A stretch of 64,000 nucleotides of DNA from Balanoglossus misakiensis (lineage: Eukaryota > Animalia > Hemichordata): NCBI GenBank assembly GCA_040954595.2, contig CM082578.2:2896831-2960830 (forward strand), written 5' to 3'. The notes under the pieces were generated by a model, which saw nothing but the letters and a program-made list of their open reading frames with translations, did no database searches and was not told where the DNA came from. Of the stretch, positions 6,801 to 61,539 are shown in pieces. The position numbers were made by a program, and so were the translations under genes. Position 1 is the first letter of the stretch, and each line of letters starts with the position of its first letter.

Positions 6801-8120
6801 TAAACTAGTGACCTCGTCAGCAAGTGGTATAGTTGTAGGGTTTTTTCGACATATTTAGGAATGATCTATGGTGCGACCTGGCCCTGTGTACAGGTCAGTG
6901 TGTTCGCAGCGTTTACACGGCCTCCACCACAGCCCTGGCAAGGCTCCATAGACAAAACTGGCGCGTCTGCGGTCCGGATATTACAGTAGAAAAGAGATGA
7001 TCTTGGCAGCTCTTGTATGTAACTGTATGGCATGGCTGTGTGTTATTATGCATGGCAATTGTCAGGAACACAAAAGTTACCGTGTATAAGGTTGACATGA
7101 AGTAATCTGTCAAAGAACCATGCATGTAACTCCATGTACAATGGAATACCTCAATACTACAAGTGCTATATGTTGTAAAGCTTAGTCCCACTTTGTCTGC
7201 ATGACTCTTTGACAAATATTACTTATGTCACCATCTTGCACTGATGACTTGCCTTGCGCAAACAACTGAAATACACTAACATGTCACATACTTCCATTAT
7301 TTTAGCTTTGCTACACCAATTAAATGCCAAGAGACAGGTAATTTGGTCTGGTATAAACAAAGGAATTGAGTAAACGTTTGTGTAAAATTGAATTAGAGAC
7401 ATGTATTTGCATGAATGTATGCGTATGAAATGTTCATGTTAGCATGATTTCAAATACATGTGTATAGATAATAGTCTAAAATTATAGTTTGTGTTTAGTT
7501 CTTATGTTATGGGACTGTGTGAACACTCTACTTAGCTACAAGGACAATCAGTGAAATGAAAATTTATTGTTATCTCTTTAAAGAGTTACTCCTCCATTCA
7601 GTAGTATTTTTTCTGTGTAAAATGTCAAGTTGCATGTACATGTTGTTATTATATATTTTTTATATATTTGTAATTTTTAACACATTTATGTTCAGTGTTT
7701 ACAACATTATATATTATATATACAATTATAATATACCTCATGCTAATACTGTGCCGTGATTCGCCAGAATCCGTCACGTGATAGGAAAATAGAATCGACT
7801 ATGAACCGCTAGGGAAATAGCAGAACAAATATAAACCGGTCACGTGACCAGCGTGAGTGCGCAGACTCGGTCACGTCAATCAGCGTCGCGTCGTCTGACA
7901 CAATGGCCACCGCTGAAGATGTTGTCTGCCAGCCTCAAGAGAAAATTACAAGATTTTCCCAGCTGTTAGCATGAGGTTTATTATAAAACACCTATAGCCT
8001 GGCCTATATTCGGGCCATAGCAGCCGTTTTTAACCCCTCGTGACTGTGAGTTACCAGAATCATATGATATTTCCCGAGGCCGCAGGCCTCAGGAAAAAGC
8101 ATATGATTCTGGTAACTCAC

Positions 8121-11100
8121 CACGTCTGTTTCAGAGTAGAAATTAAGTGTGCGCATGCGCGGCTAAAAAGGTTAAAAAAACATGGCCTCGCCCATGCGGA
8201 AGTAATGTGTGTACAGTGACATCGAAGTCTTTTACGGCAGAGTTAGGAAGGAAACTCATTACATCAGCTTCAAAGAAGGTTGGATTTAGCTCAAAGTTCA
8301 TCGATGGAAGCTGGAAGGGGCATATTTATATGGAGGAACGGTGCAGGTAAGTAAATTTCAGTGCTTATGGTTCGATTAAGTTGAACTTAACTGTCAAGCG
8401 TTTTTCGGATACCGCAACAGTGCGAGGTCACAGTGCAAGCAATAAATATATTAGCGTTTCCGTGTTCTAGCCGTGAATAAAGCTTGTTCAGCTAAATTAT
8501 CTCATGTATCTTCGGAATTTTGGTAAATCAATGGAATGTATTTGTCTTTTAATAGGTAATGATCGAGAGACGGGTGTCGTGAAGCGAACGATACGAGTGT
8601 TTCTTGGCGTGTTTTTATATACACATGGGTTTGTGTACAAGTTTCCAAATGTGCACATAACGAATGCTAGTCACTAAAATTGTGTACCTTGCGTTATTTT
8701 TCACTGTTATTGCATTCCAATACTCGTGATTATTGATATGATTTCAATTCTGAATACAGATTTTAATGAATTTCTTTTGATCACGATCACCAAAAACACA
8801 GAACTGGGGTACTCAAAAAACCCCACAGAGCTGAGGTTGTTTATAACTCAATTTTATTCAAATTACACAGTTACTAGTTTGATCAACAGCCTGATTTAAC
8901 ATCCCCACTCCACCACGAAAAAAAAAAAAAATGTGCTAACATATTCATTCAATTGGCAAGTCTCCTTAACATTTTTTTATTTAAATATTTACACCATACA
9001 ATAGCAACATTCAAATTCAAGCTATTTCACGCCCCACTCCAATCACCCCTCCCCCCTAATTATACAAATTTCCCAACATGGTATTCAGTTAATTTGATAA
9101 GGCTCCATAACGATTTTTTTTATATTTGGATATTTACATCATTAAAATTCAAGTTTTGACAGGAGTGTGTCCCTGAATATCAAATACATATATAACTGAA
9201 ATATTAACATAACTTTTACATATATACAAATGGTGCGTAGTTTCCTTCAATTGTCCTGATTCAATTTGATTTTGTTGTCCGTCGTTTAATTTCAGGTTTA
9301 TCACATGCTTTAGCAGGGTGTACAGATAAATGGTGCATCTTCATTAGTTGCTGAAGTTGTTCCAATTTATCTGGGAATCTGCTGTATGTTGCTGTGAGTC
9401 TGTTGCATTCAGAATGAACACCTTCCATCCCTTGTTCACCATGAAGCCCACAACCAACACTATGCATCTGTATCCAGGGAAGAACATGGTCCTCTAAGAT
9501 GTGCATCTTTGGAGTGACAGTTTCCCTTGGAAAGTTGCTCCGAAAATGCTGCAGGAAAGCTTCAACGCTCTTTCCTGTAAAACAATGTGAGGCAAGTACA
9601 TGTCTGTGAATTTTTGAATTAGTATCAAGTTTGAATACCATGCGTTTCTTGTACAACTATTTATGTTTAAAAATAAAGTCAATTAAAAACAATTTCTATG
9701 TCAGTTTTGTTGATTTAATCCCGGTTACACTGTAAAAGTTCCTTGACTTAGTTAATTTGGTTCATGAATAAGACATCTGACCAACTATAACTCAAAGGTT
9801 GGGAAAAATTTATACTTCTCATGATATATCATTGATATTAATGGTTTTGACTGAAGTGCAATGTTTAAGAGATGTTGTAATAGTCAGTAAAATTATAATA
9901 TGTCATCTTGGAGGATATAAACTTACCAAACTGAGTAATTTCACCTGGGGACAGTGGTCTGGCAACACTGTACAATGCATGACATCTGCTGAACTTTAGA
10001 AACAGTGGCTCAAACAGATCTCTGATATCATTTGCTTTCTCAAGTAGATCTGGACACAGCTTTTGAGTGCACTTAACTATACTGCTGGTTATCCGTGATA
10101 TGTTGTTTGGCTGAAGAAAAAAAATACATCAGTGACAAAACTTCCTTTGATCACATTTAAAGTATAATTTTTGTTTCAAATTTTCACTTCTAATTTCTTA
10201 CAAAGTGATGATATTGCTCACCTTTAAACAAATATCCACATGGTTGCCGATAAAACTCTTGCCATGATATGCCTGTCTCTTCACATGAAGTGCCTGTAGA
10301 CATTCATCTAGAGCCCTTGGGATGTAACCAGCTTCTTTTGGTAGCGCCTTTTGTTTTGTGTTAATGTGCATTTCCTGGAGACCAAATAGTAAGGTTTTTA
10401 TTGCTTTGTAAAAGGCCAGCTATTTTTCATTGGATCTGTTCATAGTTTAAAAAACTCTTTAAGATTTCTTACATGTTGTATGTTACATGAGTTTAATACA
10501 GATTTTAGTTGCTTGTTGTTTTTTTTTTGCCCTACCGCTACTAAATATGATTTATTTCCAGGTAGTGTTAAATTTGTAAACTAACCAGTGCATCTAGCTG
10601 TTTCTGTTTTTCATCTCTCATGGCCTGTAGTCCATTTATCACTGCTGTGCTCTGCACAGGAGCTGTATATTGATGGTCATGCAGTAGGGCTGACGCAACA
10701 CTACTTTCGATGTCCTGCATTTCAACCTCGATCCTACTCATGGCATCCTTTAGGGCAGATATTTCACATGAGAGGGTGAGGTAGGTGTCATACTCAGCTG
10801 GTCTGTTTGACTGAGCCTGAGAGTTACTGCTGCCACTGGAATTGTCCTCATGTAATTTGACATACATTTGAACATCCAGTGGTATGCAGTAACTCTCCAT
10901 CAAATTGAAAAGCTTCAGGTAAATGCCCAAGCTGATGTGCAGAGCTGGAGGACACACCTGTCAAAGCAAGATAGATAAAATATTTTTGTATGTCTGTCTA
11001 TTAGAGGGACAATAGCTAGAATTTTCGGCAGTTTTGTTTATCCATTTTGGTTATCGTGTTGCTGTAACCCAATCATGTTGAACAAGAAACTAGTTGATAA

Positions 11101-14100
11101 AAGATACTGCAGACAATGAGAAATTACTGCTAGTGTCCTTAAATGTATATTGAACTAACAGTAACTATTAAAGATTAACAGCATGCTTAGTGTGTCTGCA
11201 TTTTGTTAAACACCAGGATTATTAAAGTTACGTGATTTCCAGTTCTATAATTTTATTTTCTTCATTAAAATTCTGTGTTTGAATGAAGTAAGTACCTACC
11301 TGATTAATTGGAATAGCAATCAGTGGCTGGTGGATACAGTTCAGAAATTTTGGGGCATCTTTAAGCTTTGATCCATTGGTAACAAATATGTTGTATGCCT
11401 CTGTGATGGTCTCAAGGGTACGTGGAGACTGTCTACCTCTCTGTGCTAGGGGTTTCCGAGACAGCTCCTTGCTGGTATCACACCAAAGACAAAAATGTCT
11501 ACCTACATTATCAAAATGTAAGACAGAGTGGTTTATATGATACAGAGTCAACTACATGACCACAGTCACATCAATGTATTGGAGTGTGATGTTAGTAACA
11601 CATCAAGACAAACAATTCACTCACCCCCAGCTCCTGATAATCCATACAGCTTTGTTTGGTATTCATAATCTCCACACAGAATAGCTTCAATAGTATACTG
11701 CCTGTAGTAAAAATGACAAATAGTAAGTTTACTGTACAGAGCATACCTGCTGGACATTTTAGCATACTATAGGAAGTAGGACAAGAAACTGTAATTTATA
11801 TACATAACCAGAATACTGAAAGAAATAGCCAAAGGTTAAAGCTAATGTCCTAATATTCAAATTTCAATATTTCTACATTGTTGTAGTAACCAACTTACTT
11901 CCACTTATAGCCATTTAGAGTGTTGACACTGTTTACATAATTTTCAAGTGCAAGCGTCAAGTTATGATGGTTGTCTCCAGCTTCAAACATTAACCAGATC
12001 ACAGTATTTTCCTTTGCATTTGGATGATCCAGGTTGCAGATTTCAAACACAAATTTCATGGAACCACCACCTTTGTCCCCACCCACTTTCACTTGGATGA
12101 TATCCTGGGGTATTGAGCCTCCATGCCATGTCAGTCTACCAAGTCTAGGATAAAGGTTAATAATTTGAGTAAACAGAACACATAGCTTTACAGGCAAATC
12201 AAAATATGAAAATTAGGCATGGTCCCCTTAAAGACACCACGTATGGCAAATGAAATCATCCTATTGTATTAAAGATGATTGCAAAGCATTTTTACCTTTC
12301 ATTTGCTTCGAGGTGTTGAACAACAAGGTTTAAAATGTCACATCCGACCAGCGGTGCAAGTCTGATTTCAGAGGCCTGTTTTCCAGTTGATGTCTTGATA
12401 GTAAACATGAAGGGCAGGTGTTCGGTGTAAATGGATGGGATCAGTGTAGCAAACTCTCTGCGGTCTTCTGCCTCACTGCGCAGACTCAGTTTCCATTTCC
12501 TCAGCCACCTGTAAAAATGATTAATCTATGACATGGTGCTGCAAAACTTGACTAGTGAGGACAGTGGTAATTAGAATCATGGTGTACAAATGTATTTACA
12601 GGAATAACATGGACACTAGTGCTAACTAGCAACTAATTAAAGCTCCACTTGTAATAGGTTTTCCTATTTATTTGCATAGTTGTTTTGTGTATCAACACTT
12701 TTTTGGTTCAACTCCCAATGCAGCAGGACGATATTACCTTATTTAGTTTGTCAAGTCAGCAAATATGTGTGCAAGTCTTGTTACTGTAGATCTTGAATCA
12801 TTTTGTCAACAGTAACAATGTTTGTTGCACGTGTTGTGTTTATAAACAAAGTGATTATGGTAGTGTTTTAAGATAGGGAGTAGAACAAGAACTTCTGCTG
12901 GTACACAGACCAAACATGCTGATAAAATATATAAAAAATAGAGAGCATGTCCAATTAATGCCAACTGCATGGGTACTTACTGCTTCAGTTTCCGGAATTG
13001 GTACCATGTTAGTCTCATATCCACTTTCAAGCTTAAACCATCACCCTCCTTCAGGTCTGGTAATAACCCAAGGTTACTGAGAATGGCTGCTCGTTCACCT
13101 TTATCAAGGGATTTCATTTCATGAGTCAGCTGTTCTCTAACACCTGATTCCCCACCACTGAGCTGGTCCCTGAGTTTCTGTATCAGTTTACTGCGATTAG
13201 TCTTGGTTTTTGTTGTAACTAAATTACTGTCCTTGCGAGGATTGCTGATACACTGCACAAACAGTGGCTGAAAAAGCAAAATAAAATAATGGAATAAAAA
13301 ATGAAATAAAACTATTTAAAATGGAAGATTGTGTAGGTGTTCAAACAGTTAAGGTAAGTAATAAATTCCTGGTAAGTATAGAACACTATCATCTGTGATA
13401 TGCAACATTTCAGGGTAGTTTATCATGCTATATATTGGGGGTCAATTTTAGGTCAAATTTATAGCTTGCATCACATGCTTGATAGAACAATGACCTTCCA
13501 TTAGCTACAATCTACTAGTACACAATTTCAATATTGTTTTGTTCTGTGTTTTTATTATTAATAACACTATAGAAAGAACAAATAGTCAACAGTTGTTACA
13601 CAAGTGTCATTATTGCCTGTAACAATTTGAAGCTTTTAGTTTACAATAAAGTTAGAAGAGTCTAGACCTGCCCTTGCATTTGGTGTTGACAGTAGTTTTT
13701 CTTTCAAGCATTTTGTAGCCAGATCTTCATAGCCAGGTATTTTTGACATTGATACATCTGGTCTCAGCAAGACGGACATAGCATGCTCACTTTCATTTAT
13801 GGGTTCTGTAGTTAGTGTGTGTATTTGGCTTGACTGAATGGTACGGTGCTCATGAGATTTAAGTTTATGAAGTGGAAAACTCTCCTGACAAGTTTTGCAA
13901 GTCATTGACTTTTCACCAAGACATGTTGTGAAGGGAATTGCAACTCGTATGATGCATGATGGCGATTCAATTTCAAACCGACAGATTGGACAATTGATGA
14001 CAGTAGAAGCTGCTAATACCCACTCACGTAAACATTCTCCACAGAAAACATGCCCACATAAAATCTGAATGGGGCCATCCAGCACTTCCTTACAGATGGG

Positions 14101-15234
14101 ACACAAAAATTCAGAGGAAATTTCATCAACAAAAATATCTGGGTGCAAACTGATAATATCATCATCAGAAAGGAAACTTTGTGCCTTTTCCCTGTCAATA
14201 GTGGCAATAATTTCTTCTGTGGGAAGTTTGGAAGTAGTTGCTGATTGGACAGATTTTGCAGAAGATTCACAATCACTTGAGGGCAGCTTCAGTAAATTAA
14301 CATATTTGTTCATTGATTGGCGACGTTTTGGAGTCCTGCCCCCCTTTTTGCATGACAATAACTTTTCACACACTCCACAATCCCCTGTCCGCGGATGGTT
14401 TGACCACACAGCATAATTTTCATTCCAAGTGTAGGTTTTTTGGCGAAGGATGGCCTCCTTTCCGTGTAAAAGTTTCCTACGGCAGTTGCTACAGAATTCC
14501 CTTGGATGTACTCCGTCCTCATCACAGGACACATCGATGTGAAAAATGACCTCAATATCGCACATATAGTCACGTACATTGTACTTACGAGCATCAGCAC
14601 GGTTTAAATTACCAAAACAAAATCTACATCGTGATTCAATGACTGTCTGATGAAATTCTAGCCCCGCCATCATGATCACACACACTCATTTAAAGACCGG
14701 TAACGGTAATATCAAACGATAATTGGCGGAACAGGTTTGAAATTCGCGCCGAATTTGATCGTCGTGCCCCAATCCGCAAGCGTATGCCCGGAAATATGAT
14801 TGAAATAGTTTAACTCTGGGAGGGGTAAAATGACAAAAAACTATTGGCAATGCCATAGAAACTCCGGAAATTTTTTATTTTGGTTCATGAAAGTGGTAGA
14901 ATCCTAAGGGGGATTAAAATTGTTCCCTATCAGGTCAAGACACTTCGATCGCAGTCTCAATGATGGCGATCGCCACAACGCAAAACAGAGAGCTCCATAC
15001 TCTATTCCAGCTTGTTCAATGACGTAAGGGGATTCCCCAACTACCCATGTGACACGACCAAATATGGTTGGGGGCGGGAAAATAGTGATCAAAACCGTTG
15101 TTGACATCGATGACGTGCCTGATAGATGACATTTAAAATTTCAATTCCCGTTATTCTCGCGAGGTTTCGAAAGTCTCGTTTTTAGCGCATGCGCACACTG
15201 CTTTTCTGCTATCAGTGCAGAATAAACAGACGTG
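8121..15234 (-). mobile_element. Chapaev / N-RAG-TP-like DNA transposon, both ends present
   Basis: Termini CACGTCTGTTT and AAACAGACGTG. Exact 4-bp TSD TCAC (8117-8120 and 15235-15238). Subterminal inverted GTGTGCGCATGCGC. Confidence 0.85.
9261..14673 (-). CDS. Multi-exon Chapaev/N-RAG-TP transposase: RAG1-like CND (Chapa) domain, C3HC4 RING, Zn finger, DDE core
   Basis: H-x7-CRFC...DEDGVHPREFCSNC...WSNHPRTGDCGVC. RING CPICKEVLDGPIQILCGHVFCGEC...CPIC. Core exons carry GGDKGGGSMK, CGDYE, FCLWC, PPALHISLG, TPKMHILEDH and GEQGMEGVH. The exon 1/2 junction (13668/13267) looks out of phase, so the gene may be slightly damaged. Confidence 0.8.
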
Positions 15235-16516
15235 TCACAGCCCCTCGGGTGTAATAAACGGCCGCTATGGCCCTCATGGCCAGGCAATAGGTGTTCACTA
15301 TAAATAGCTTTCAGTATGTTCTTTGATGTTTTCCTGTTGCAAGTAAAGTTATATCCAAAGGATAAAGAGCATGATGACAACCCATATAAGTGAACATAAT
15401 TCAGACATTTTGTTCATTACAGATGTATGCTGTATTCCTATTGCAACATCGACGCCCATGCAGGCCAAGCATTCTGTACAACAGAGCTATGAAGGAGCAG
15501 TCAGGTGGGATATGATAAATATTTCTAACATTAGATTTTTCTTTGGTTTTATATGATTTTCAAATGTAATACAGGTACTTCATGGCTACAATGTACATGT
15601 GTGAAATACTTGTTTTATAAGTAGTGTTTATTCATGAGATGCATTATCATTGTTTCATGGGTGTAGCTTACTCAGACACATTATCTTTCTAGCAAAGACC
15701 CAGATGAAAATGTGAGTTCAGCTGAAGATACAGAGGAAACAACATCAACACCAATGCAAGCTAAACAGTGCTTTCAAAACGTGTATGATGAGTCAGTCAC
15801 AGGAAGGTGAGATTTGCCCTCACTTGAAAAACTGGTAGTTTGTAGATTTATGCTTTGTCTACATGTACAAACATGCACCACAATGTTAGCCATGACACCA
15901 GGGCTTGAAAGAGGTCTGTTGCTTGTAATTTTTGCTGTGTATTGTATATTCACTGTATCTACATACATATTTCAACACCTCATCAATGATTGTAACTAAC
16001 CAAGCATTGGGTAATATTTTATTTTTATAGAAAAATAGCAGATGAAACTTTGACTGCAAGTGATGATGATGATGAGACTTTATCTGCTAGTGAAGATGAC
16101 GATGAAGCACGGGCGTCATGGAACAATGAAGTGTATGGGATAAATAATAAACTCGATCAACGAACACACAAGAAAATATTTCGTTTTTGGGTTGTTTTTT
16201 TGGTGTGAACGAGAACTGCACTCACGAACGGCCTACCGGCTTCTCTGTCACGTTTTCAACAGCAGAATATCCCCCTTTCCAATGACCAAACGCATGATAT
16301 GCGAACGAACGCACCAGCGCGGAACGCGGAAGTGCACAGTGCTTCAGGTGTATGACGTCATTTTAGTCATAACTGAACGCTGATGGCGCAACCTTCAAAC
16401 GCGCGCGCGCTCACGCGCCGGGGCCAGCAGACAACAGTTTCTGTCCGGCTCCGTTGCTAGGTAGGACAGATGCGCTCGTATACAGTGTATGTAAGGAAGG
16501 GTATGCAATCGCTCAT

Positions 16517-19500
16517 ATGGAGTCTGGGGACGTGCGTTACCAAAAAGGGGGGACAGGGGGGACACTTCTTTCTACGGAGCAGAGTGCCATCGAAAGGTAA
16601 GCAATAATTTTATTTTTTGCTTAGAATGTGTCTAGAGAAGTGTTGGATTAATCATGAATAAAAAACGGAAAAAAATACATATCCCTGTGTGAAACTGCGT
16701 GAGCTCAGCTCCTCCCACACGTCATGTACTTATGGTCGTGCGTTGTTCTTGTGCATCACTGTTACATTTACGAATGGCTTGACGAAAAGCTAGCACATTT
16801 TTTGTTTGAAAACAATAAACAAAAACAATGTCTTTGTATAAATAAGGATCAGCAAGCTAGATATTTTAAGCGTCCCACACAGTTTGGATTTCATATCATA
16901 CCAGTTTTTATTTTACATACAGCATTAAATTTTGATTAATTTTCCTTTGAAACCCACGAGTTACTAATAGTGACCCTAAAGGTCATAAATGAAATCACCA
17001 TCAAAGTCATCAAAAAGATTGCTGACAAATATCTCCATTTTCAGTACAATAACATAATTGGCAGGTTTTTTTTTTTCAATCTTAATAGTTTACATCAAAT
17101 ATTTAAAGTTACACCAGGGCGAATACTCACTGTGTCGGAGGCATACGAGACATACTGCACCACCCACAAGATAGGCAATATCACAAAAGATCAGTTTGGC
17201 CGATGTGTAACATCTGCCTTTCCAGAAGTGCAAAAGACAAGACGTCGAATTGATGGTTCAAGACAATATCCTTTGGAAAATTTTATTCATAAGCTCACAA
17301 TGTTGACTAGACATTCCATAGCTACACACATTTGTATTGTTCACGCTAGTATGCAATTGTAGTTTTGTACAAAGTCAAAATACTAAAGCGGTATAACCAC
17401 ATCTGCAAGTTTGTTTGATACCAACAATTGAAGATTAATTAACGTAAGACAAGCTGGCTGAATGCTTACAACAACATATATTGCGTAAAGTTTCACTACA
17501 TTGTTCAAAAGTTTAGTTTTGAGAATATTGAAAATGTTTTTCTCATTTCATTCCTTTCTTTGTTGACACAGATCTCTGCAAACATGGCACTTATTTTACT
17601 GAAAGTTGCAGGGTGATAATTTTGCTAGTCGTGCACCTATCCGTCCATTCAAATGAATCATGTGATTTGGCAGTGAAAAGCCTGATTCCCCCCCCCCCGC
17701 AACCAAATTTGTGAACCAACATAAAAGTTGTGCATTTGGATGCATATCCTACATGATTAACAAAGCATAACATTTACTAGAGTTCCTTAACCAATATCAC
17801 ATATTGTTACCTCCAACTGTCACTGAGGGAGAGAAGGGAAAACTTCTCAGATACTAATTTGGAGTATTCATATTCAAAGTTTTGTAAAGGTATTTCTGGA
17901 GAGTCTTGTGCTGATGTACTACCGAGAAAGGATGCCATATGCAAAGCTGAACAGCACAGTAATGAATCATGCATCATCTTTTCAACAAAATGTAGTCAAG
18001 TAACAGTGTCCCTCAACAGATGTGAGGCATGTAAAGCGTTGTACAACTGCCTGAAATCAGCTCGATACAGGAAACGGTCAAATACATCTGATGCATCCAG
18101 TGTTCGATGGGCATATTTGAGCCGGGAACAGCTCCTGCAGAAGCTGAAAGAAAAAAATAAGATTATTGAAAATGAGAGGGAGAAGAGAAGGTATCATACC
18201 ATACGCTCCGAACAAATTTTACAACAACTCCAACTATCATATCAAGACAATCATGACATGACATCTATATTTAAAGAAATTGAACAAAGAAATGGTATCC
18301 CATCAACATTCACTACAGAAATGGAGCTTCTCTGGAATTCACAGAGAGAGCATGTGCAAAATAAGAGAAATAGCTGGCATCCAAAGTAAGTTGTATTCAT
18401 TTTTCTTCAATTTTTTAATACAATTTTGAAGGGAACTCAAAACAATAAAAATAATGACGTACCATTTACTCTCTTCAGTAAATATAACAAAGAACATGAT
18501 ATACATGCAGAAAAAAGACTTCACAATAAAAATACTCACATATCACAATTTGTGAACTGTCTTTACAGAATTTTAGAGATTTGCTTAAGACTGTGGCACA
18601 GGTCAAAGGAAGGCTACAGGGAGTTGAGAGAAAGTGGAGTGCTGAAACTGCCATCAGAGAGATTGCTCCAGTACAGGAAAAATAAAGTACCCCCAAAACC
18701 TGGACTGGATGCAGATGTCCTGCAATGGATGAAAGAAGATGCTTTAGGTCAAAATGTGGAGGAAGTGGGCTACTGCGGTGCAATATGTTTTGATGAAATT
18801 AAAATACAGGTAATAGCAATATGAGCACCGTTTTGAAATTGTATCCTCCAAATAAGTTTTGTTTACTTGTGTATCAGTTTCTCCAATTACAACAGTGCTG
18901 TAAATAAGATGTGATGACTAAGAGAACGGCCACTGTGATATTGACATTCAAGTGTAATACCAGAAATTACTCTGACCGGATTAATATGACACTTTCACTA
19001 TTATCTGAAGACAATGAACTTCAATATGTGACAAGCTATGCATCCAGGACAGCAGCTAAAGATTATATTGAGATGATGCAAACCTACCTTGCATTTATTG
19101 TTCACAATCACTGCTCTGTTCACTGTATGGTAGTCAAACCACACAATTTTTTTTTTGCATCTACATCTACGACCATTTTCATGTCACGAACTAATGATGA
19201 ATAGAGGAAATTTCCCCTCATTATCACTTCTACCCATCAGGGAGACCTGCAGTTGAAGAAAAATGCAGACACCTATGACATAGTTGGTTTTGTGGAACTT
19301 GGGGAGTACTATGACATAATGAGCCAGCTCCAAAGCAGTGAGTAACAAAGCATTTATTCACACTTGACCTATACCTTTGCATGTATTGTGGATAATTTTC
19401 TTGAGTCACCAGTGAGTTTGTTGCGTCAGTGGTGCATCGTATGGGCTTAGAGGGCATACTCTGTACCACTACAATGTATTGTTCATTTCCCCCCAGATGA

Positions 19501-21326
19501 TGGAGATCTAAAAATGGCTTCACATATACTACAGATGAATTTCATTGGGTGCACTGGTTTTGAATTTGCCTTTGCATGGTTTCCTACCAGAGAAGTGGAC
19601 GCATCCACACTTTTTGATATCCACTGGCGAGCAGTATACGCTCTATTTCAGCAAGGTTTCAACGTATTTGCTAGCATATGTGATGGTGGTGAAGCCAACA
19701 GGCAGTTTATCATGACTCATTTCAAGACAGGGTTCTCTCAGGCGTTGGAAAACAACTTCACCATTCCAAATATGGTAACAGGTGAAAACTTCAGTTTCAT
19801 CATGGATCCCTCGGTGAGTTGCTAATTTTTGTTTAATTAACACTACTTAAAAATGTGTTGACATCTTGGTTCACATATCTAACAAAATTGTTGTATAGTG
19901 CTTACCATCAATATGTAATTCCTATTCTTGGCTCACGAAAGTACTGCCGCACGATGCAACCACATCACTTGTGACTTCTGCTCGAGCGCTGAGGTCATGG
20001 AGTTCTGTCATATTCAACTTCGGAGTTTTCCAGTGCTGTGAAGTATTACTTTATAGTTAAAATAAATTGTCTATTCTTCACGGAGAAAAATTCTTGAACA
20101 AATTTTCAGAATAATTGCATTTAAAGAGGGTGAAGGTTAAACTGACATTTTTTTTATTGTAAAATCTTGTATCTACTCATGCCTCTTTATCTGTTTGTAA
20201 TGCACATGTGCACACTATAAAAGATAGGAAACTTTCTACGGTACAGTAATACTAATTCAGTTGTTATTCATTCCACACTAGCACAACTTCAAGAAATTAA
20301 GAAATAATCTTGAAAAGAGTACAAATTCAGGTCACTCACCACGCTGCCTTACCATATATAACGATGACGGACCCCACAAGATACTCTGGTCTTGTCTGGT
20401 TGAAGCATATATGCATGACAGAAAAAACAACATAGCTACAAATCCAAGGCTATCAGATGAACACTTCCATCTCACAAGTGCTTCAAGGATGAGAAATCAT
20501 CTGGCAAATGAGATTTTCACAGCAGAAACAATTGAAGTCGTCAAGGTCAGTCAAATTCCTACAAAAAAAGACAACAGCATTTCAGTGACCCATTTTTCAT
20601 GATAAATAAGCACAACATTTAACTCATGCTTAAATATAGACTGAAATGTTTAGAAAACAGAATAGATTGCCTCAAAATTTACACACATCAGTTATGTTCA
20701 TTTGAAGTAAATTTTATTCACATCAGAATTATGAAGAATATCTCAACGCCAATGGATTGAGAAATTGGCAAGATGTGTCCGCCACTATCCATTTCCTAGA
20801 AGAAGTCAACGTCCTTTTGAAGAATTACACCAATAAAACACCATACAGGTAGATTGCTTTTAGTTTAAAATCATACTCTTCACTCCAGCAAAATGCTGTT
20901 AAATTTAATAAACATACAAACTTTGTATTTCATGTCTTCATTTGTACATTTCAGTTTCATTTTTCCAAAAAAGAACAATCATTTCAATTACCTATATATC
21001 TTGTCACGTTGTACCGGTATACAGCTCCATTGACGACCAACGCTTCCAGTCAAACCAAGCAGTCCTGGAATGGTTTCTGAAGTGGAAGGAGAGTACCTCC
21101 AATGCTACTGTAGGTCCCAAGGAACAAAGAAGAATGTTCCTTTCAGAGAAAACACTCTTTGATGTCTGCAGCATGGTCCACGGTTTCCAAAGCTATGCAA
21201 GAGAAATCATTGTGAGAGGGGGTTCTGTGAAAGCATTCAAGACCAATCAAGACAGCACGGAAAATATATTCAGTTGTGCAAGGGCCAGCAATGGGTCGAA
21301 CTCAAACCCTGATGCTCTCCTTTATG
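16517..21326 (+). CDS. P-element (THAP9-family core) transposase with an N-terminal RFX-like winged helix; last exon not located
   Basis: Approximate exons 16517-16596, 17089-17265, 17801-18385, 18569-18809, 19241-19337, 19497-19813, 20282-20545, 20728-20849 and 21025-21326 splice in frame. Motifs: WHPKILEICL, LPSERLL, FDEIKIQ, ICDG, DPSHNFKKLRNN, RMRNHLA, NQDSTENIFS. Confidence 0.8.
17266..17800 (+). other. U12-type (minor spliceosome) AT-AC intron
   Basis: 5' end ATATCCTTTG. Branch site TTCCTTAAC at 17783-17791, with AC 9 nt later. Splicing restores the frame and gives GSRQYCYLQLSLR. Confidence 0.8.
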
Positions 21327-21649
21327 GTAATTAGACAACAAAAATCAGCAACCTCTTTAAATTTACTCAAATGACTCGCACATTGCAACAGAACTCATAG
21401 CCTTTAAAGCTAGATAAAACAGACAAACTGTCAAAATCTATGAGAAAGAACTTACCTTTCAAGTAAACTGCACCATTGTTGTTCCTTTACATTCGTTCCA
21501 CAGCATAAATAAAAGCCCCAATAGCTACCAATTTTTGAATCCCCACAATTTCAAAATGGCGTTTATTTTGTCGACTAAAGATAATGAAAAAATTTAAGTA
21601 TTTTATTTATTTAAATATATGCTTAAAGTGGCAGCTACTGGGGCTTTAA

Positions 21650-22425
21650 GATGGGTCCCTGGGATCTTTTTGCTCGTTGCTATGGGCCTTTATAGTACAT
21701 TACACCCCGATTTGGACTAAGCCGTTTTCAGAGTCTAGTTGAAAATCTGCACGATTGTGTGCACACCCCCTGTCCGAGTATGTTTACGGCAGCTACCGCC
21801 CGGCCATAGGCCGCCACGCTAATACGGCAAAGCAGCGGTCAGCGATAGCGTGCGCGTCCTGTAACCACAGTAACTGGATCGAACGCTAAAAATCCAATGT
21901 TTTGTACACAGAGATTTTGTACCGTTCACGAAAATCCCTAAGGCTTTTTTCATAGGCCACGTACGCCAGTCAAATTTGACCTGCTTGTTGAGAACGCACT
22001 TCCGCACAGTGTGACGGATCGTTTTTTCGGTTTTCGTCGTGCTAAGAAGCGATACCGGTGGAAGAGTGCGTCCAAAAACACCCAAAATCGATGACTTTTT
22101 CAGGTGTGGTACGGGTATGCTGAAATCGTAGGATACAACGATAATATTCGAAAACAAAATCCGTCACGATCTTCCCTGGTTCAAGCAACTAATGAATACG
22201 TATCAAGTTCGTTTTTGAGGTCACGGAATATAAAGCCTTAGGCTTTTGAAATTTGACCTAGCTAAATTGCATATCAATGGCGTCAGGGGCGCGCGCTCAC
22301 AATCGTGCAGATTTTCAACTAGTTACCAGCCCCTTGTTAGACTCTGAAAACGGCTTAGTCCAAATCGGGGTGTAATGTCCTATAAAGGCCCATAGCAACG
22401 AGCAAAAAGATCCCAGGGACCCATC
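21650..22425. mobile_element. Kolobok-type MITE inside the P element
   Basis: About 90-120-bp inverted repeats starting GATGGGTCCCTGGGATCTTTTTGCTCG. Flanks are TTAA and TGAA. Confidence 0.65.
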
Positions 22426-23420
22426 TGAAACGGTAACATACTTGTATGAAGGTTGGATCAATTAAAGAACCAAAGATGCAGCAAGCTTGTGACAAGGGTG
22501 GATGATTAAAATATTACCTTACAGTTCTCTGTATGTACCAAGCTTGTCACAAGGATGGATGGATTAAATATTAACTTACAGTTCTTGCCCCCCCCCCCAC
22601 ACACACACACAAACACACTTTTTCTCTGCTTGAAAATAAATGAAGCAATATTAGATAAAAGGTTTTTTTTACATCTTAAAACTTCCCACCTACACTATTA
22701 ACGAAGGTGGTGCTCATGATTTAAGATAGTTATTTTGTTTACAATTGCTTTAAGAATTTCCAAATAATGTTGATTTTACAATGACAAAGTCTTTGCTTTA
22801 GACTCAGCGTACATTCCAGATGTAGCACGATTGAGAAATTGCAGTTTTTACCATGAAATATCGTACCTCTACGAAAAACAACTGTCAAATAAATTATCAT
22901 TGGCGATCAAAGACGATCAGCTTCTATATTTAACACTCATGATTTAAACACAAGAAATGGATGCTTAGACACATGGCGATATCCTTGTAATAATGTCAGG
23001 AGACGTTTATTAATAAATCAATCCCGGTTAAGAATGCAAACATAGTTCATTTCGTTGCAATATCCAACAGTACAGACAATAAGTAACAGTAAATTTGCTA
23101 AATGCGAGATGGTCATGAACGGTAGACCGGCACCCATTACGGGCATTACTACAGCAACAATGACCATGGACGGACGCGACTGACAACATGCAGCAAAGTC
23201 TAGCTAAAAGATTTACCTATCTTTTAACGATCAATTCATCAAAACAGCAGCATCGCTGATGGTATAAAATCGCCCTTTCCGAATGGATGTGGATGATAAA
23301 CATGTCTGACGAACACTGGGACCGCGACATAATGCTTAGATGTGTTTACAACAAGAAAACCGTTAAAATATGGCGGGTGTACCTCGCGCATGCGCACAAC
23401 GCTATTTTCGTGTCATAACA

Positions 23421-23837
23421 GGTGTTGTGCCGAATTCGGCCCCATGCCGAATACGTCCCCGCGCATGCCTTGACAAACAAACCATGGCTTCTAAGGGATA
23501 AGATCGGCAGGTAAAGCTGCTGATTTCAGCCCCGTTGCCGATTAAGACCCCAACTAAAGTCATGTTAACTATTGAAAGCTAAAAGTGATGGTTTCGGCCT
23601 AAATGGGTGAATATCTGCCCATGGCCCTGATTTGTTGGTGGAATGAAATTAAATCCTTGCGGTAATGCAATGTCCAAGTTTACAGTGCAGTACAATGTAC
23701 ATTCATGCACAGCCTTACATGCACGTTGGATGGCAAAACTTTCACACAAGAAAATGCAATATTTCAGACACATGTTACTGATGACCCGAGCATGCGCGGG
23801 ACGTATTCGGCATGGGGCCGAATTCGGCACAACACCG
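23421..23837. mobile_element. MITE of unassigned superfamily
   Basis: About 47-bp inverted repeats GGTGTTGTGCCGAATTCGGCCCCATGCCGAATACGTCCC. No clear TSD. Confidence 0.55.
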
Positions 23838-24285
23838 GAAATAGAGCTTCGACTGTGAGTTAGGATCGACTGACGATATTTATAAAATAAAAATATTGAA
23901 GTAGGATTTGAGTAACCATGAAATATACTCATTTTTGGGGGAAAAAAGTATGCTTTATTAAATGTAGGGATCTTGTACACTATGCATGGGACCTAGCCTG
24001 GCCCCAGACCAGTGTTTAGAATTTCTAAAACACACTGGTCTGGGGCCAGGCTACATGGGACCATGTACACTATGTATACGGCATGGAACCGAAGTTTTTT
24101 TAAAACCTGCAGTGCTCAACTTTCAGTGTTTTGCAAGTTTGTTTAACACTTGTAGCAAGTGTGTATTATACAAGCTTGTATGGGGTGGTTCACAAGCTGT
24201 ATCCAAGCTTGTAATTTTAAGCCGTAATCTTATCCAAGCTTGTAAAACCTTTATACAAGCTAAGAGCTAGCATTTCATAGTTGTG

Positions 24286-26645
24286 TCATCCTTGCAGCAA
24301 GCTTGTACAAGGTTGTGACATCTTGGTGACTTTCGTAAGGGGTAGCTTACCACTGAGTAAACCCATCCATGAATCAACGACAAAGTTATTACTTTTGACT
24401 GCAGTGGTGATAACCTGTAACAAAGAACCCTGGTGTTGCTTCAATATATCTTCTGTATACAACTTTTCACAGAGGGTTTCCAGAATACATGTAAACAGGA
24501 AACAGCCATCAGATATATGGGTCAAACCTCCCCTATCATGCAATTCCATGTGCTTAAGACTTTCAGGAAACTGGGTGCTGACTACAAGGTCAGAGTAAGG
24601 CACCTGGAGCTGTTGAAATAACTGCAACAATTCCCTGTGTATAGAAGATTTGGCCCGTGTTTTCGCAGACTTGCCTGACATGGCATTTACCATACTGTTG
24701 TAGCACTGACTGATCAACTTGCAAATACACCAGCCACCAACTTTTCTCAGTTTCCCTTGCATTGCCCTATTAAATGTTACAGGCGTGTCAGAGAGATCAT
24801 CTACCAATACTACATCATCAGATAAACAGACGTCTCTCACTGGTACAAGACTTTTCATCAAACACTTATTCACCTCCATGATGACAATCATCATTACAGA
24901 ATGAAACTGTGGAGGAACCACACCAGTACCTGAACCCAACAGACCATACGACCTCAAAACAATTTTCCAATACTTATGAACAGTACTGTCCCAAATCACA
25001 GCAGCAATATCAGCACACTGACCTTTCAGGATTCTGTTACTAATATGCTTTGTGTTTCCCATGCATGTCTTAATGGAAGAGTTACTCAAGTGATGAAAGA
25101 TATACCGAATAAAATCCACCAAAACACCATTCCTAACTTTGGGATCAAAGAAACCCAGAGATTGCATTATGCCAACCGTCTCCGTTGAATTAAGAGGATC
25201 ACTACCAAGTTTCAGCAGCATGTCATCCAGAGAAATGTCATTATTAATGGTACATTTGGGAATTGTATCATCACATGGAGAGTCAAAGACCACAGTGGTT
25301 ACAACAGGTGTGGAGGCCAACCTATCCATATCATCAGAGTCAGGTGGCAATAGAGGACTCAAACATTTGGAAATAGAAGGAACTACAAGGTGCCCGACTG
25401 TCACAACAGATACTTCATAAAAACTTCTCACATGTGGGTGGGCTGGTATGATGTTGTGAGAAAATCCTGGTAAAACTCTAAGGCATTCAGGGCTTGCTGC
25501 CCTCGTGTATGCAGTGTATGCTTGACCGGGTAAGAACATGGCCACATCACAAACCTCAAGATTATTCAATGTGGATCCTTGGCTTTTATGAATGGAAGAA
25601 GAGTACCCCAACTGTAATGGAATTTGGAGGCGTGTTCCAATTGTTTTCCCTGTGTCATCAGAGACAGAAAAATACCTCCGTCTAACTATAACCGTTCTAC
25701 CATCTTCAAAACTAACCTTAGGGAGCCCACTCACAAAATCAATTACATGACCATGCAGACCATTACACAACAAACCACCACTAACATTGTAAAGGTTGGT
25801 AAGAAGAATGACAGGACAACCTTTCTTCAATATTAGTTTCCGAACAGCATTTACAGCTTTACCCGAAGTACCACAAACACCAGTATCTCTAGCTAAGAAA
25901 ACTTGAGGTTCACCAGGAAATTCCTCAAGCCTAACAGCATTATATATAGCAACATCTTTACGACGTGGATACAGTCTAATATCAACACGTGGAAGGGGCC
26001 TTGTCAATAAGCTAAGATATTCAATTGTAGCCTTGGATTTAAAACCCTGGCGTATATCCTCTAATGCCCTTAGAAATCTTGGATCTCTCTGCCGCATAAC
26101 TGTCTCAAGAAATACACAAACATCTACGGTACAATCCCATGCAGTCGACTTGAAACAATAGTCAGGCATCTCTTTCTCCGTGCCAATACAATCAACTGGG
26201 GGAAGCTGGCAGAAATCACCCGAGAAAATCACACGAATCCCTCCAAACGGCCCAGTTGTACCTTTAACAGTTCGCATAATGAACTCAATTTTATTGAGCA
26301 GACTGCCTGACAACATGGAAATTTCATCAACTATAAGCACTTAAGTTGACCGAAGCTTATTAACAACATACTGCTTTTCCTGAACCAATTTAAGTAATTG
26401 CAAATTACCCCATTACCCTGACCAATGCCAAAAGCTGAGTGAACAGTTGAACCACAGATCAAACTGGCAGCCTTGCCAGTGCTGGCTGTAACAAGAACAC
26501 CTTCTTCTCCGAGTTTATGCATCTGTTCTTTGATTACATGGCGCAACACAACGGTCTTTCCAGAGCCAGCTCTACCAGTAATAAATGTGTTTGCATTATT
26601 GCAAATGTTCTTGACAACCTGCTGTTCATCTGTTAATTCTGACAT
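24286..26645 (-). pseudogene. Intronless Pif1-family SF1B helicase with a C-terminal extension; one frameshift near 26340, 3' end cut by a repeat
   Basis: GRAGSGKT, ASTGKAA, GSTVHSAFGI, DEISML, GDFCQLPPV, MRQRD, LKKGCPVILLTNL, QIPLQLGYSSSIHKSQGSTL, GQAYTAYTRA. C-terminal VGGWCI...DRGGLTHIS. Confidence 0.85.
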
Positions 26646-29600
26646 TTTCCCCTTCAACAACAATTCCACCAGATAAATTGTATACAAAACTGGTCGCACC
26701 TCAGAACACTTAACACCCTCTCAAACTGTCAGTCACCAAACTCAAAGCAAGACGCGGGAAAATCAGGTCATGTGACAAACGAAATGTACCACCAGCTACA
26801 AGACTTGAAGTTGAACTGGGAAGATTTACCTTAAAATTAATTTATATCACATAGACCTAGGGAGAACAGCAGTAAAAGTGGTAGAAAACGTCATACAGAA
26901 GCAATATCGACGCCGGAAATAGAACTTACACCAGAGAAAAGCTGCAGTGCGTTCACAAATATGCAATTGATACCTCCCTACACAGTAATAGATGACTGAA
27001 ACCACGGACACAAAAAACACCTAAAAACACACCTCCTAGAATAGAAGCCTGCAAACCTTATTATACATGTCATGAAATCGATAAAATTATAATAATAAGC
27101 ACACACTTAGCTATGAAGTTCCGATGACATCAACAGCTCGACGATACGCGCGCGGTGTCCGTGTATCACACTGCCACCATGATCACGAACTGAAGATGAA
27201 GCTGACGACGCGCGGGAAAGTGGTGCCGTTTTTCTGCGCAAGACTACGTATACCTTTTACGGCGAAATTTGCGACATTCATAAAACACCATTTTACATCA
27301 GACGCAAAATCGGTAACGCACGTCCCCAGGACGAGTGACACTTTTCGATCGATAATATCTCGAATGTTCGACCGACTTTTGAAAATTGAAAAGCCAGACA
27401 TTAGGTTTCTATCTAATCTAAAACGCATACTCTGATTTGGTAGCGATCTTCTTCGTAATAGTTGCCAAACGGCGGTGGGCTGAAAATTCGTTTCATACCC
27501 TGTATATATGTGTACTCACGTACACGTACACAGCAACGGCGCGCACGCATGCGTACATTAGGTAGAAGAACAAAAACAGCTCAACACGATCGCGATGCGA
27601 TGTCGTACAACTGTACAAACAGGGCATAGACAGGTACGCGTACGGTGTGGATTTGTTAACTGACCCAGCTTTATTGCAGTTCTCGTTCACACACAAAAAA
27701 AAACGAAATATTTATTGTGTATTCGTTGAGGGCGCCGCGTTTATGTTAAGTTTATCATTATCCATACACTTTATTGTTCCATGACGCCCGTGGATGAAGA
27801 CGTTGGAATAAATTTCAGAACTCCCGGGTATGTAAACCTATTGATTTGGGATTAGATTTTCATCAGTAGTCCTGGTAATGTAGTACGGGAAAATAATATA
27901 ATGGAATACATTGACAACTTCAACCATTTTTATCTTTCATTTAGAAATGTCCCCAACTTATCGATGGATGATGATCTCCACAATTTAACAATGGAAGATG
28001 AAGTATTTCAGACAGATACTCATGGTACAAATGATGATGGTGTCCCAGTTGCAAGTCCTGACAATCTGTCAAACGCTCAAAACATGGATGTTATTACAGA
28101 CACAAAATGCATCGCCTCTGTACCTGAAATTTTGGATCTTTTAAAACAATTGCATGGAGATTCATGTAAACGGGATGGATGCCAACGTGTACTAACATAC
28201 AAGTCATCTTTAGTTGGAACTGCACTTACTGTTGAATGGACATGCTATTCTGGTCATCGCGGAGGGAGGTGGCAGTCCCAAAGAAGGTTTGATGGAATGT
28301 TTTCTGGAAACTTTCAATTGGCTGTCTGTATCTTGCTGTCTGGTAACAGTCATAAGAAGTTTGAACTCCTGTGCAAGTTTTTAAATCTGGCTTGCATATC
28401 ACACACTACTTTCAATCGAATCCAGCGACTGTATGCTGCTCCTGCTATACAGAACTACTGGGACAATATGGAGAGGGACATGTTGGACTCATACCAAGGG
28501 CAAAAGGCTATATTGTGTGGTGATGGCCGCAATGATTCTCCTGGACATTCTGCTCAGTATTTGTCCTACAGTTTGGCTGATGCAAACAAGCACTGCATTG
28601 TCCACACCGAAGTGGTGGACAAGCGCGAAGTAAATGGTAAAAGTCCAAACATGGAACGGCTGGGATTTGAACGATCCATGGACAAACTGAAGAGGTCTGT
28701 AGAGATCGAGGAATTGATCACAGATGCCCATGTACAGATTGCTGCAGTGATGCGTAAGTTATAGCTGCAGCACTTGTATTGGGAACCCCAAATATCAACT
28801 TCAGTAGAGAAATGGGGATGTAGCAATATGCCAAAGCAACTTACCTAGCTAAAGTGTTCTCTTATTTTGAGTGGCAATGTGAGATTGAAGATAATACAGC
28901 AAGGTAGATACATTCATGTGTATGGTTATAAGATACACTTCCTGTTGTGTACAATCTTTGATCTTACCTTGCCATTCATTGGCTGGGAACTACAATTTCA
29001 CCTACTTAGGTGTTCCAAATACAAGTGCTGCAACTGTAATTGTTAACTTTGTAGTTCTGTTGAATGTGGGGATAACTTTCAAAAAGAATTTTCGTCTTCA
29101 ACATGATAAATGAGTGTAGACTGTTGTTGCAATCCATGTATGTTTATGTGCTAGCTAAATATTTAACAAAAATCATACAATTTTTGTAATACAATGCTGT
29201 TTTCTTCCATAATCTTCAGGCAACTGTGACAAATACAAGGACATCAAACATTCATGGGACCTTTGGCATGGAGGTAAAAACATTCATCGAAAAGTCCTGG
29301 AGGTAGGCTGTTACTTCAACCTTTGATCTGGTGTATGCCAGTACACAAATGAAATATCGTAGCATATGCCATCTGAATTCCATCCAAAGTGTGAACAAAA
29401 TACTAATCATATGACACATTTTCAGTGTTACTGTTGGCCATTCACCATGTCAACTGCAAATTTATTTTATTCAGGCATCAAAGCCTAAGAATTGCAAGGA
29501 CCTTTTGCACTGGGCTACTGCAGTGAGAAACCACTTCTGGTATGCTGCAAGAGAATGTAATGGAAGTGAAATAAAGATGAAGGTAACAATAATTTTTGAC

Positions 29601-30599: not shown

Positions 30600-32451
30600 C
30601 TAATCTTGTACCTCACCATCTTTATAGCCAACATATATATTGTTTGGGCTTGGAAATCTGCCCCTTATTGCCCAGACACAACAAGAGGGGACAACGCGCC
30701 GATTGCCAGCCCCCAGTTTCCCATGCTGCCAATAGATGTACTGTCTGTACGCAAAATGTCTAAAACATGCATTGTCTCGTGACTGTTCTTGGGCATAGGT
30801 ATCAGCTATGCACCGCATAGCTATCTCAAGAACATTCGCATCCAGAACAAGATGACTAAAGAGATAGTTGTCGGTGATGCATCTTTGGCTCTGACGAATG
30901 GCACAACATTTGTTTTCCTTCTGAGTGGGCATTTCACGGCAATGCACCAAGAAGGTAAACTACCAGGTCCGGGTTGTGGATACGGGTTGGGAGCTGGATG
31001 CTGTTCCTGTTGTACGTCACACCATGCCTCTGGCTGTCGTCGGACTAGCTCTAGAGTCAAAGTCTCCAGATCTTCCCTGCTTGCCTTTTGTACAAAATCC
31101 TGTTTGACAAAAACAAAATACCCCCATGAGGTAATCTTGCACTGACAAAAATTTACAACTTTTTTATGTAAACTTATTTTTCATAAACAAACAACGTTTA
31201 TTGGAATCTTATTTTGCAGTGGAAAAAATGTCATCATTGTGTTTCATAATATACTGTGTGAAAGTAAAATGTGTGCAAAATTAGAATGGTTTCTCACGTT
31301 GGGGCGGCACACTTCCTTGAAAACCATATATGTACAAACATTTAAAAGATATATAATTGCGTGGTTTCTCTTCAGTTTACCCCCGTTTTGTTTTGTTTGT
31401 TTGCTGTTGTTGTTGTTGTTGTTGTTTTTTTGGGGGGAGGGGGCGATATCTCAGTCACTAATGCATTTTCAACAAGTTCATTCCATGATCAAGCAGAGTG
31501 CACACAACATTCATAGGACATACCTTCATCTGCCTCTCATTGTCTTGCAACAATTCTGCTTGTGTTTGCTGTTCCTGGGTGTCACGTGGCCGTTTTTTTA
31601 CAGATTCTGAAGCAGGTGGTTGTACCTCAGCCTGTTCATCATCAGATGTTGAATCCTATGAAATGATGATGATGATAATAATAATACTGATACTTGCATT
31701 CACATTATTATTGAGCCTCAAAGATGTTTTGATCATAGCTTACACTCACCTACAAATATGACTAGTTGTAGTGAGCGAATCATTGGGTTTCTGACGGATT
31801 TGTCAATGCAACATCACAAACACTGCACTGACGATTTTTGTAACAAAGGTTTGTATGAAATCTATACTACGACAGGTTAAAATCATAGCACGCCAAAACT
31901 GTTCGGAAACACTGCAACAAATGTTGAGCTGAGCAGTTACATGGTACGTCCGAGACTTGGTGCGGCCCGAGTATTGAAATAGCGAGTGTTCATATATTGC
32001 ATCGCAATCGTTGCATAAAGTTGTTTACGCTAGCGAACGCCGAGTTTGCATTGGAATACGGCCGAACACTGAAAGTTCGTGTCAGGGTTATGACGAATAA
32101 CTCTATCTACGGGAGCTTTACAGTACTGATATGGGCCTCTTAAAATTCGAGAAACAGACTGTTTGACAGCACGTCCGATCCCGCCACATCGATAATCAAG
32201 CTTACATTGAATTGATGATTGAGGGTGACAATAAGACGTAGACATACCTGTATAGCTGTGTTTGAACACGGCCGTCGCTTTCCACAAGAGCATGCCGTTT
32301 TACAAAACTCATCGACTGCTCTGCACGGACATGCTCCACGTCCTTTCTTCCTTGCACAAACCCCACTGCAGTTACACGATCTGGGGTCTTCACTTTCTGC
32401 CACGTCTAGCGCTGCTGCGATATCACTGAGAGCGAAGCTATCTTCGGCCAT
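30600..32451 (-). pseudogene. Kolobok accessory gene KolX (N-terminal CXC-like Cys cluster; C-terminal P2X7 ballast/nanor-like domain)
   Basis: Exon 1 has CNCSGVCARKKGRGACPC...CKTACSC. The last exon has CREMPTQKENKCC...CIT...FRHFAYRQY..WQHGKLGAGNRRVVPSCCVWAIRGRFP. There is a small frameshifting deletion near 30945. Convergent with the transposase. Confidence 0.75.
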
Positions 32452-33004: not shown

Positions 33005-33019
33005 TTTAAGTGACCCCCA

Positions 33020-44357: not shown

Positions 44358-44678
44358 TAAAAGCTTATTTGATATATGATTTTCACACATACTACAATAA
44401 TTCCCTAGACCTCTTAAAGCCCTTCCAGCTGCTAAATTTCCCATATGTTCCGCATTATAAAATTATTGAAATATATTCTCTTTCCTATAATATGGCTACT
44501 ATTAAGCCATATTATTTGCATTTGCATCAGTTTCTCATCTCTTGCTCACACATATCATTACAGCTGTGTACTCTTTTTTATTGATGCTGACTAAATCGAT
44601 GCAGCACTCCTTCAATACATAGCGTATTCAAATTGCAACATACACTCATATTCATGTATCAATAATGTGTTCATGTAA

Positions 44679-47600: not shown

Positions 47601-48248
47601 ATATGATGTAGGGGCCCTTAAAATTGCACCCCTTCATTTTCGGGTAGTTGGGTCCCCATAGAAGCCAAAACAGCAAAAAAACAATTTTAGCACAAAAATC
47701 CTACGGGAGCTGTTTTTCTTGACATACCATACCGCACTAGAACAAACAACTTCGGAGTGGCCAAAATGAAAGTGCCCCCCCCCCAATAAAAAATGATGGA
47801 GGGGCCCTATAATTTGCACCCGATTATTTTTGGCCAGGTGGGTCCCCTCCAAAGCAAAAACAACAAAAACAAATTAATTGTAGCCCAAATTCCCATGATG
47901 ATAGAGTAAAAAGGTGAAGAAATATCCTCGAGTGACCAACACAGAAGAGACCCCCCGAAAAAAAATTGATGGAGGGGCCCTAAAAATTGCACCCCATGAT
48001 TTTTAGGTAGTTGGGTCCCCATTGAAGCCAAACAGCAAAAAAAATCAATTTTAGCACAAAAATCCTACGGGAATACACATCATACCACGAAACGGAAGTA
48101 CCCCCCCCCCCCCAGAAAAATATGATGGAGGGGCCCTTAAAATTGCACCCCATCATTTTCGGGTAGTTGGGTCCCCATAGAAGCCAAAACAGCAAAAAAA
48201 TCAATTTTAGCACAAAAATCCTACGGGAATACACATCATACCACACTA
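44679..48248 (-). mobile_element. Non-autonomous Academ-like element with long inverted arms made of ~130-bp subrepeats
   Basis: Ends are TAGTGCGGTATG and CATACCACACTA with a TAA TSD. Arms 44680-45560 and 46900-48248 are inverted. The internal fragment 45810-46043(-), GW...PAPKAVLELIKCGCKAGCRGRCSCSKNDLPCTPLCKC, resembles the C-terminal CXC of Academ transposases. Confidence 0.7.
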
Positions 48249-61537: not shown

Positions 61538-61539
61538 AT

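Follow-up and report, generated by a model that had tools for sequence, protein, structure and literature searches.

The transposase gene at this locus of the hemichordate Balanoglossus misakiensis raises the question of whether a mobile element carries an intron of the minor (U12-type) class, and if so, where the intron came from and what it does to the transposase. The window is the whole stretch of DNA that was analysed, 64,000 nucleotides in length. A sequence-only reading of it had proposed an AT-AC intron inside a transposase gene, at a motif resembling the RFX DNA-binding domain.

Transposase gene, element ends and intron signals

The gene model contains the following features.

16517..16596, plus strand: probable exon 1, inferred from the first ATG in a phase-compatible frame; the true start is uncertain
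17089..17265, plus strand: exon 2 (177 nt), encoding the RFX-type winged helix as far as the split codon
17266..17800, plus strand: U12-type AT-AC intron, splicing predicted; 535 nt long, phase 2, interrupting the last wing strand of the RFX-type domain
17266..17274, plus strand: U12 donor ATATCCTTT; these first 9 nt are those of the human RFX7 donor
17783..17800, plus strand: branch point TTCCTTAAC, then the AC acceptor; 9 nt from the acceptor end
17801..18385, plus strand: exon 3, encoding the last wing strand (YCY), a Cys-rich region and a coiled coil, ending at RWHPK
18569-18809, 19241-19337, 19497-19813, plus strand: exons 4-6, part of the P-type RNase H core
20282-20545, 20727-20848, 21025-21334, plus strand: exons 7-9, part of the P-type RNase H core

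Removal of the AT-AC intron and seven GT-AG introns leaves 730 stop-free codons in nine exons (16517 to 21334). Two otherwise separate open reading frames are joined in frame, as the sequence-only reading had proposed. Codon 86 (Q) is split in phase 2, and the junction reads ...GSRQ^YCYLQL (^ marks the splice site). When the intron is retained, the frame stops at 17362, giving 117 residues. The encoded protein starts with the RFX-type winged helix, which is followed by a P-element-type transposase. Exons 4-9 (18569..21334) contain the RNase H core motifs D (FDEIK), D (ICDGG), H (DPSH), and E (STENIF); the later exons match the Pfam TNP-like RNase H N and C families, with scores below the cut-off. 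Queries with single exons gave no match in protein searches. The exon-9 acceptor at 20955 was rejected because it breaks the frame, and 21025 was used instead. The transposase frame stops early, at YGN-stop; its relatives run on for about 30-50 residues.

The gene is part of an element of 11.7 kb (16108-27792), which has inverted ends and is flanked by a target duplication of 7 bp.

16108..16220, plus strand: left terminal inverted repeat, with a GATGAAG duplication directly before it
27675..27792, minus strand: right terminal inverted repeat, with GATGAAG directly after it
24286..26720, minus strand: PIF1-like helicase gene within the same ends, convergent with the transposase
21645..22430, no strand assigned: MITE-like inverted-repeat insert
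23421..23836, no strand assigned: second small inverted-repeat insert

The terminal repeats start with CA, are identical over the first 20 nt, and are 76% identical over 127 columns. The codons flanking the element form a single frame, with …DDE on the left and DVGINFR… on the right, and the element therefore interrupts an exon. This exon is part of another element, with a P2RX7_C gene, which we take to be Kolobok-like. A TNP-like DDE core inside an element with real ends agrees with the earlier assignment of a transposase gene. A frameshift and a stop near 26340-26400 disrupt the PIF1-like gene; no report of a P-type element carrying PIF1 was found in the literature search. The early YGN-stop and the broken PIF1-like gene suggest that this copy is partly decayed and recently damaged, and the 730 stop-free codons also point to recent decay.

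The U12 criteria applied were a 5' splice site of RTATCCTTT, a branch point of TTCCTTRAC about 10-20 nt before the intron end, and no long pyrimidine tract. The 535-nt intron matches the donor and branch-point criteria. The sequence from 17266 reads ATATCCTTTG; the branch point spans 17783-17791, and its A residues lie 11 and 10 nt before the intron end; the acceptor AC occupies 17799-17800; and pyrimidines make up 11 of 20 bases near the 3' end. Thus the AT-AC intron of the sequence-only reading was recovered with all three of its signals in place. Six RTATCCTT sites and four TCCTTRAC sites occur in the 64 kb when both strands are counted. Of 2000 stretches of 11.7 kb simulated with a first-order Markov model, 4.8% contained an ordered donor and branch-point pair less than 3 kb apart, and the U12 motifs alone are therefore only moderately unusual. 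No ordered pair occurs in 34 related transposase loci (123 kb). If the site is fixed beforehand at the codon where RFX5 and RFX7 carry an intron (see below), base composition gives the donor a chance of 4.3e-5, to be multiplied by 4.2e-4 for the branch point. It is this position that raises the signals above chance. No repeat copy of the intron was detected, with no match longer than 14 nt in the window and a best E of 0.65 in the 34 loci; an Rfam search of the window also gave no match.

The junction was compared with its neighbours, among which 117 donor-acceptor pairs are in frame and stop-free. They were scored against a profile of relatives and multi-RFX repeats, from which the window sequence was excluded. 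The proposed junction ranked first of the 117 on the combined profile (39.9 bits, versus 33.5 for retention), and only fourth of 117 on each of two sub-profiles. One of the alternatives, GT 17256 to AG 17850, is an in-frame GT-AG path. The U12 signals might thus be unused in this copy, because the major spliceosome joins these two sites or because the copy is dead and untranscribed; the early C-terminal end and the broken PIF1-like gene would fit the latter. However, the GT-AG path has a weak donor (GTTCAA) and deletes the last wing strand, the decay appears recent, and the death of one copy would leave the origin of the intron unchanged. We regard unused signals as very improbable. Sequence and comparative evidence confirm the U12-type character of the intron, with splicing as a prediction.

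RFX-type domain and the host minor intron

Exon 2 matches the Pfam family RFX_DNA_binding (PF02257) with 25.6 bits (E 1.9e-5), slightly below the cut-off of 27; the last strand is not included in this match. The predicted fold is a 58-residue model with a pLDDT of 76. Among 48,161 chains, its top structural match was RFX1 (1dp7; Z 5.9, rmsd 3.1, 57 aligned residues), followed by RFX5 (8zjr; Z 5.4, rmsd 3.2, 57 aligned); the next chain scored 4.5. These Z-scores are modest. Foldseek with the same model returned nothing at E 0.001, and a sequence search of solved structures gave no match for exon 2 or for the related locus L005. The Atlas features of the domain lean towards the related Pox_D5 winged helix. 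The fold comparison places RFX1 and RFX5 closest to the domain, in agreement with the RFX-like motif of the sequence-only reading.

A search of representative proteins with exon 2 gave four matches: two multi-RFX proteins and two repeat proteins, which were dropped as unrelated. The multi-RFX proteins, P0001 and P0004, are the best sequence matches of exon 2; they have about 975 residues and five RFX DNA-binding repeats each. The identity between the window domain and such host-type repeats is 16-25%. A Pfam search for a THAP zinc finger at the N-terminus of the transposase gave no match. The RFX-type domain occupies the place of the THAP domain in the Drosophila P transposase. An element without THAP and with an RFX-type N-terminus is a P-type variant, not a canonical P or THAP9 element. 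A pattern scan of the element ends found no full X-box and three half-sites. The domain probably binds sites near these ends.

RFX5 and RFX7 are minor-intron genes in the available part of a recent preprint (bioRxiv 10.64898/2026.08.20.745718). The rows of the CENATAC supplement give GCAAATCTAA^ATATCCTTT ... AC^ATATTG for RFX7 (AT-AC) and GCCAGTCCAA^GTATCCTTG ... AG^ATATTG for RFX5 (GT-AG), or, in short form on the exon side of the donor, ...AAATCTAA^ATATCCTTT and ...CAGTCCAA^GTATCCTTG, respectively (PMC8280824). The MIDB table rows agree with these, with the donors CAA^GTATCCTTG for RFX5 and TAA^ATATCCTTT for mouse Rfx7 (PMC6717393). The branch point of mouse Rfx5 in the same supplement is GTTCCTTAAC (PMC6717393), as at the branch point of the window intron. 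When the tables are read against the RFX5 chain (PDB 8zjr), both host introns are phase-2 introns that split the K codon of S-K^Y-C. The window counterpart, CA^ATATCCTTT...AC^ATATTG, likewise splits the Q codon of R-Q^Y-C in phase 2. The likeness to RFX5 and RFX7 of human and mouse thus consists of the codon, the phase and the six downstream bases, with the donor as in RFX7 over 9 nt. The suggestion in the sequence-only reading that these genes have a U12 intron at the matching point proved right for human RFX5 and RFX7, and the comparison of position and phase that it had proposed gave the same codon.

The alignment of the site was obtained in two ways. By eye, 24 gapless residues separate the FG of helix 3 (the recognition helix) from the split codon in both RFX5 and the window. 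In the structural alignment, model residues 1-57 correspond to RFX5 residues 96-156, which puts the split codon on K158; the RFX5 numbering was taken from R149 as given in part of one study (PMC7897653). There are also differences from the host genes. The window intron sits in the transposase gene of a mobile element, and its domain is divergent and has no RRLG.RG signature. Human RFX7 has another intron 117 nt upstream of the minor intron in the supplement rows (PMC8280824), at a point where the 177-nt exon 2 of the window is continuous.

Searches for the host-intron pattern elsewhere gave seven bacterial loci in prokaryote genomes, none with an RFX domain, which were taken as chance, and no contig among viral contigs. 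The supplement of PMC6865273 has no RFX row, and the supplement row of PMC7507305 and the available text of PMC7452370 contain nothing on the intron position.

Related transposases and the origin of the intron

The 34 loci of the same transposase family came from a motif-based search of metagenome contigs. Their identity to the window transposase is 28-42% (21 loci measured). An RFX-like domain is recognisable in six of them (L005, L012, L016, L028, L030, and L034): a profile detected four of these, phmmer one, and an alignment L005; a weak Pfam match was obtained for L034 only. The other 28 loci are too short, interrupted or without a recognisable RFX-like domain. Five scans of viral contigs found no relatives. 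The predicted model of L005 is of low confidence (pLDDT 47.9, N-terminal domain unresolved) and is closest to the Drosophila P transposase structures 6pe2 (E 1.3e-6) and 6p5a (8.3e-6), with which its Atlas features agree. In L005 (1428-3869) and L009 (663-3116), the core is one long intron-free frame, unlike in the multi-exon members.

None of the six relatives that reach the RFX-like domain has an intron at the wing site. Other introns are common to the family. As inferred from the DNA, a phase-2, pyrimidine-rich acceptor lies just before helix 1 in the window and in all five relatives with an intact 5' part; in L034, as in the window, the acceptor is 177 nt from the wing site. An intron after RWHPK is present in four loci (the pattern required GT, and misses were uncounted), and one after DExxIQ is common to six of the nine loci showing that motif. 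These common introns suggest that the family passes introns on and that the window domain carries a family mark.

Phylogenetic trees were reconstructed for the core and for the domain. In the unrooted core tree (17 of 35 rows, with short and near-duplicate loci left out), the window sits on a long branch near L012, L016, and L034, with a bootstrap of 66, which is too weak for counting intron losses. In the domain tree, which was built without RFX1-7 sequences, the window adjoins the host-type repeats with a support of only 50%; this tree is too weak to name a donor.

Probably, an ancestor of the P-type family captured an RFX5/7-type domain once, long ago and at the DNA level, and the minor intron was kept here and lost in the sampled relatives. 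The domain would have entered the ancestor as genomic DNA together with its minor intron, taking the place of THAP; most lineages of the family would then have lost the intron, and the window lineage would have kept it. The gain of minor introns is described as very rare and their loss as common in the parts of two studies available (PMC10639083; PMC11347168). With the intron missing from all six relatives, one to three or more losses would be needed. This reading assumes that the actual donor lineage had a minor intron, the host evidence being from human and mouse RFX5 and RFX7. The capture from an RFX5/7-like gene proposed in the sequence-only reading therefore stands in part. The matching codon and phase favour it; the capture would, however, be ancient and family-wide instead of specific to this element, and the absence of the host intron 117 nt upstream speaks against a simple copy of the host gene.

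The chief alternative is that part of a host gene was transferred at a later time. The family domain would have been intron-less, and the window lineage would have re-acquired the host RFX5/7 part (wing, intron and YCY) by recombination or template switching, with loss of a spacer. The window domain is indeed the most host-like of the seven (30.6 bits, versus at most 21.4), and both the intron and YCY are found in the window only. Directly behind the domain, 26 residues separate the wing from the CxG motif in the window, versus 104-125 in all five measured relatives, so that a spacer of 80-100 residues is absent in the window and present in each of these five. The missing spacer could be the scar of such an exchange. 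On the other hand, the wing before the intron is like that of L034 (R-[IV]-[DN]-G, of the same length) and unlike the RRLG.RG of RFX5, and the family-type intron before the domain is retained. An identity of 16-25% to the host-type repeats is also low for recombination, unless it was very old. A later transfer is considered fairly unlikely. The possibility that the intron is the decayed spacer of the relatives was rejected, as the spacer lies after YCY and no tblastx match was found.

The intron might also have been gained de novo in the transposon, as an independent U12 intron that fell on the RFX5/7 codon by coincidence. Its absence from six of six relatives would agree with this, and occasional gain of minor introns by class conversion is reported in the available part of one study (PMC11347168). 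But such a gain would require a rare event to hit one exact site among about 2,200 coding positions, followed by the six bases that also follow the intron in the host genes, and is extremely improbable.

Ancient capture also bears on the direction of exchange. Exchange of domains is usually described as running from transposases to the transcription factors of the host. The rare intron would act as a tag for the opposite direction, from a host transcription factor to a transposase. It suggests a donor subfamily (RFX5/7) and a DNA-level route, which a protein identity of 16-25% alone could not.

Predicted splicing dependence, known systems and neighbouring elements

The full-length transposase would need the minor spliceosome to complete the domain and to open the remaining frame. 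Retention of the intron would give the 117-residue stub with an unfinished DNA-binding wing, and its transcript would probably undergo nonsense-mediated decay. In the Drosophila P element, retention of IVS3 yields a 66-kDa repressor, according to the available part of one article (PMC7776569). Gating of this kind, as the sequence-only reading had envisaged, is not supported here: the intron is absent in all six checkable relatives, and the stub offers no repressor like the 66-kDa protein. The spread of U12 introns by the element, which that reading had also considered, is likewise unsupported, and the element is not an introner.

The intron might nevertheless be kept as a regulated switch, in which slow or stress-dependent minor splicing limits the transposase to certain cells or conditions, as IVS3 does for the P element. 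The element has lost other host introns but has perfect signals for this one, all of the downstream frame is blocked when it is retained, and the RFX5 and Rfx7 introns respond to minor-spliceosome inhibition in the available part of the preprint (bioRxiv 10.64898/2026.08.20.745718). But perfect signals are needed for any splicing and are no proof of regulation, six of six relatives manage without the intron, and the retained product has no complete DNA-binding domain. A switch of this kind seems quite improbable. A wider claim would be that a P-type lineage took a host domain with its minor intron and that the intron has been kept as a brake on the transposase ever since, over hundreds of millions of years; this is improbable. 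If it were true, transposase output would be tied to minor-spliceosome activity, and this would be the first mobile element under such control. Most likely, the intron is passive inherited baggage that lowers the output rather than a switch under selection. With the minor intron present in one transposon lineage and absent from six relatives, the family offers a natural comparison of neutral baggage and selected brakes.

The element resembles the Drosophila P element and THAP9 in its TNP-like RNase H families, in ends starting with CA, in a multi-exon transposase, and in a retained intron that would block the transposase. It differs in its RFX-type winged helix (THAP in P), in having a minor instead of a major intron, in the lack of a repressor-like retention product, and in its PIF1-like gene. 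Target duplications in the P superfamily are 7-8 bp long. The duplication is 7 bp in the window element and 8 bp in Drosophila P, and the terminal repeats are about 113 nt and imperfect versus 31 bp, the P values being those in the available part of one article (PMC7776569). Introners, which are transposons that give rise to introns (PMC9860276, PMC12130899), similarly link mobile DNA to introns; unlike them, the window intron sits in the element's own gene, with no second copy in the window or the 34 loci. Full-text literature searches, with most subscription papers and Repbase entries outside their scope, turned up neither a U12 intron described in a transposase gene nor P transposases described as RFX-type. 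The element appears to be a variant P-type transposon with a traceable host minor intron.

The P-type element is part of a nest of elements (about 6150-31000), in which both the P-type element and a second element have inserted into a Kolobok-like transposase; the family names in this nest are presumed. The P2RX7_C gene of the Kolobok-like element lies at 30600-30960 on the minus strand. Another element of the window (7987-15295) is bounded by inverted repeats and has a multi-exon gene on the minus strand with RAG1_imp_bd, RING, and DUF1280 matches, which we take to be like a Chapaev transposase. A second P2RX7_C gene (55156-55551) lies in the region of about 51600-55550, together with short matches to the first Kolobok-like element (51609 and 52108); this region is probably a second element related to the first one. 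A RING-finger exon (56668-57430) and a 596-codon RAG1 core (59778-61565; Pfam RAG1, 233.7 bits) form a RAG1-like gene or transposon. The frames of a Gypsy-like LTR retrotransposon (gag, protease, RT, and integrase, assigned by eye) are found at 33019-37404, split by stops. A foldback structure at 44674-48243 has arms made of tandem units of 150-190 nt.
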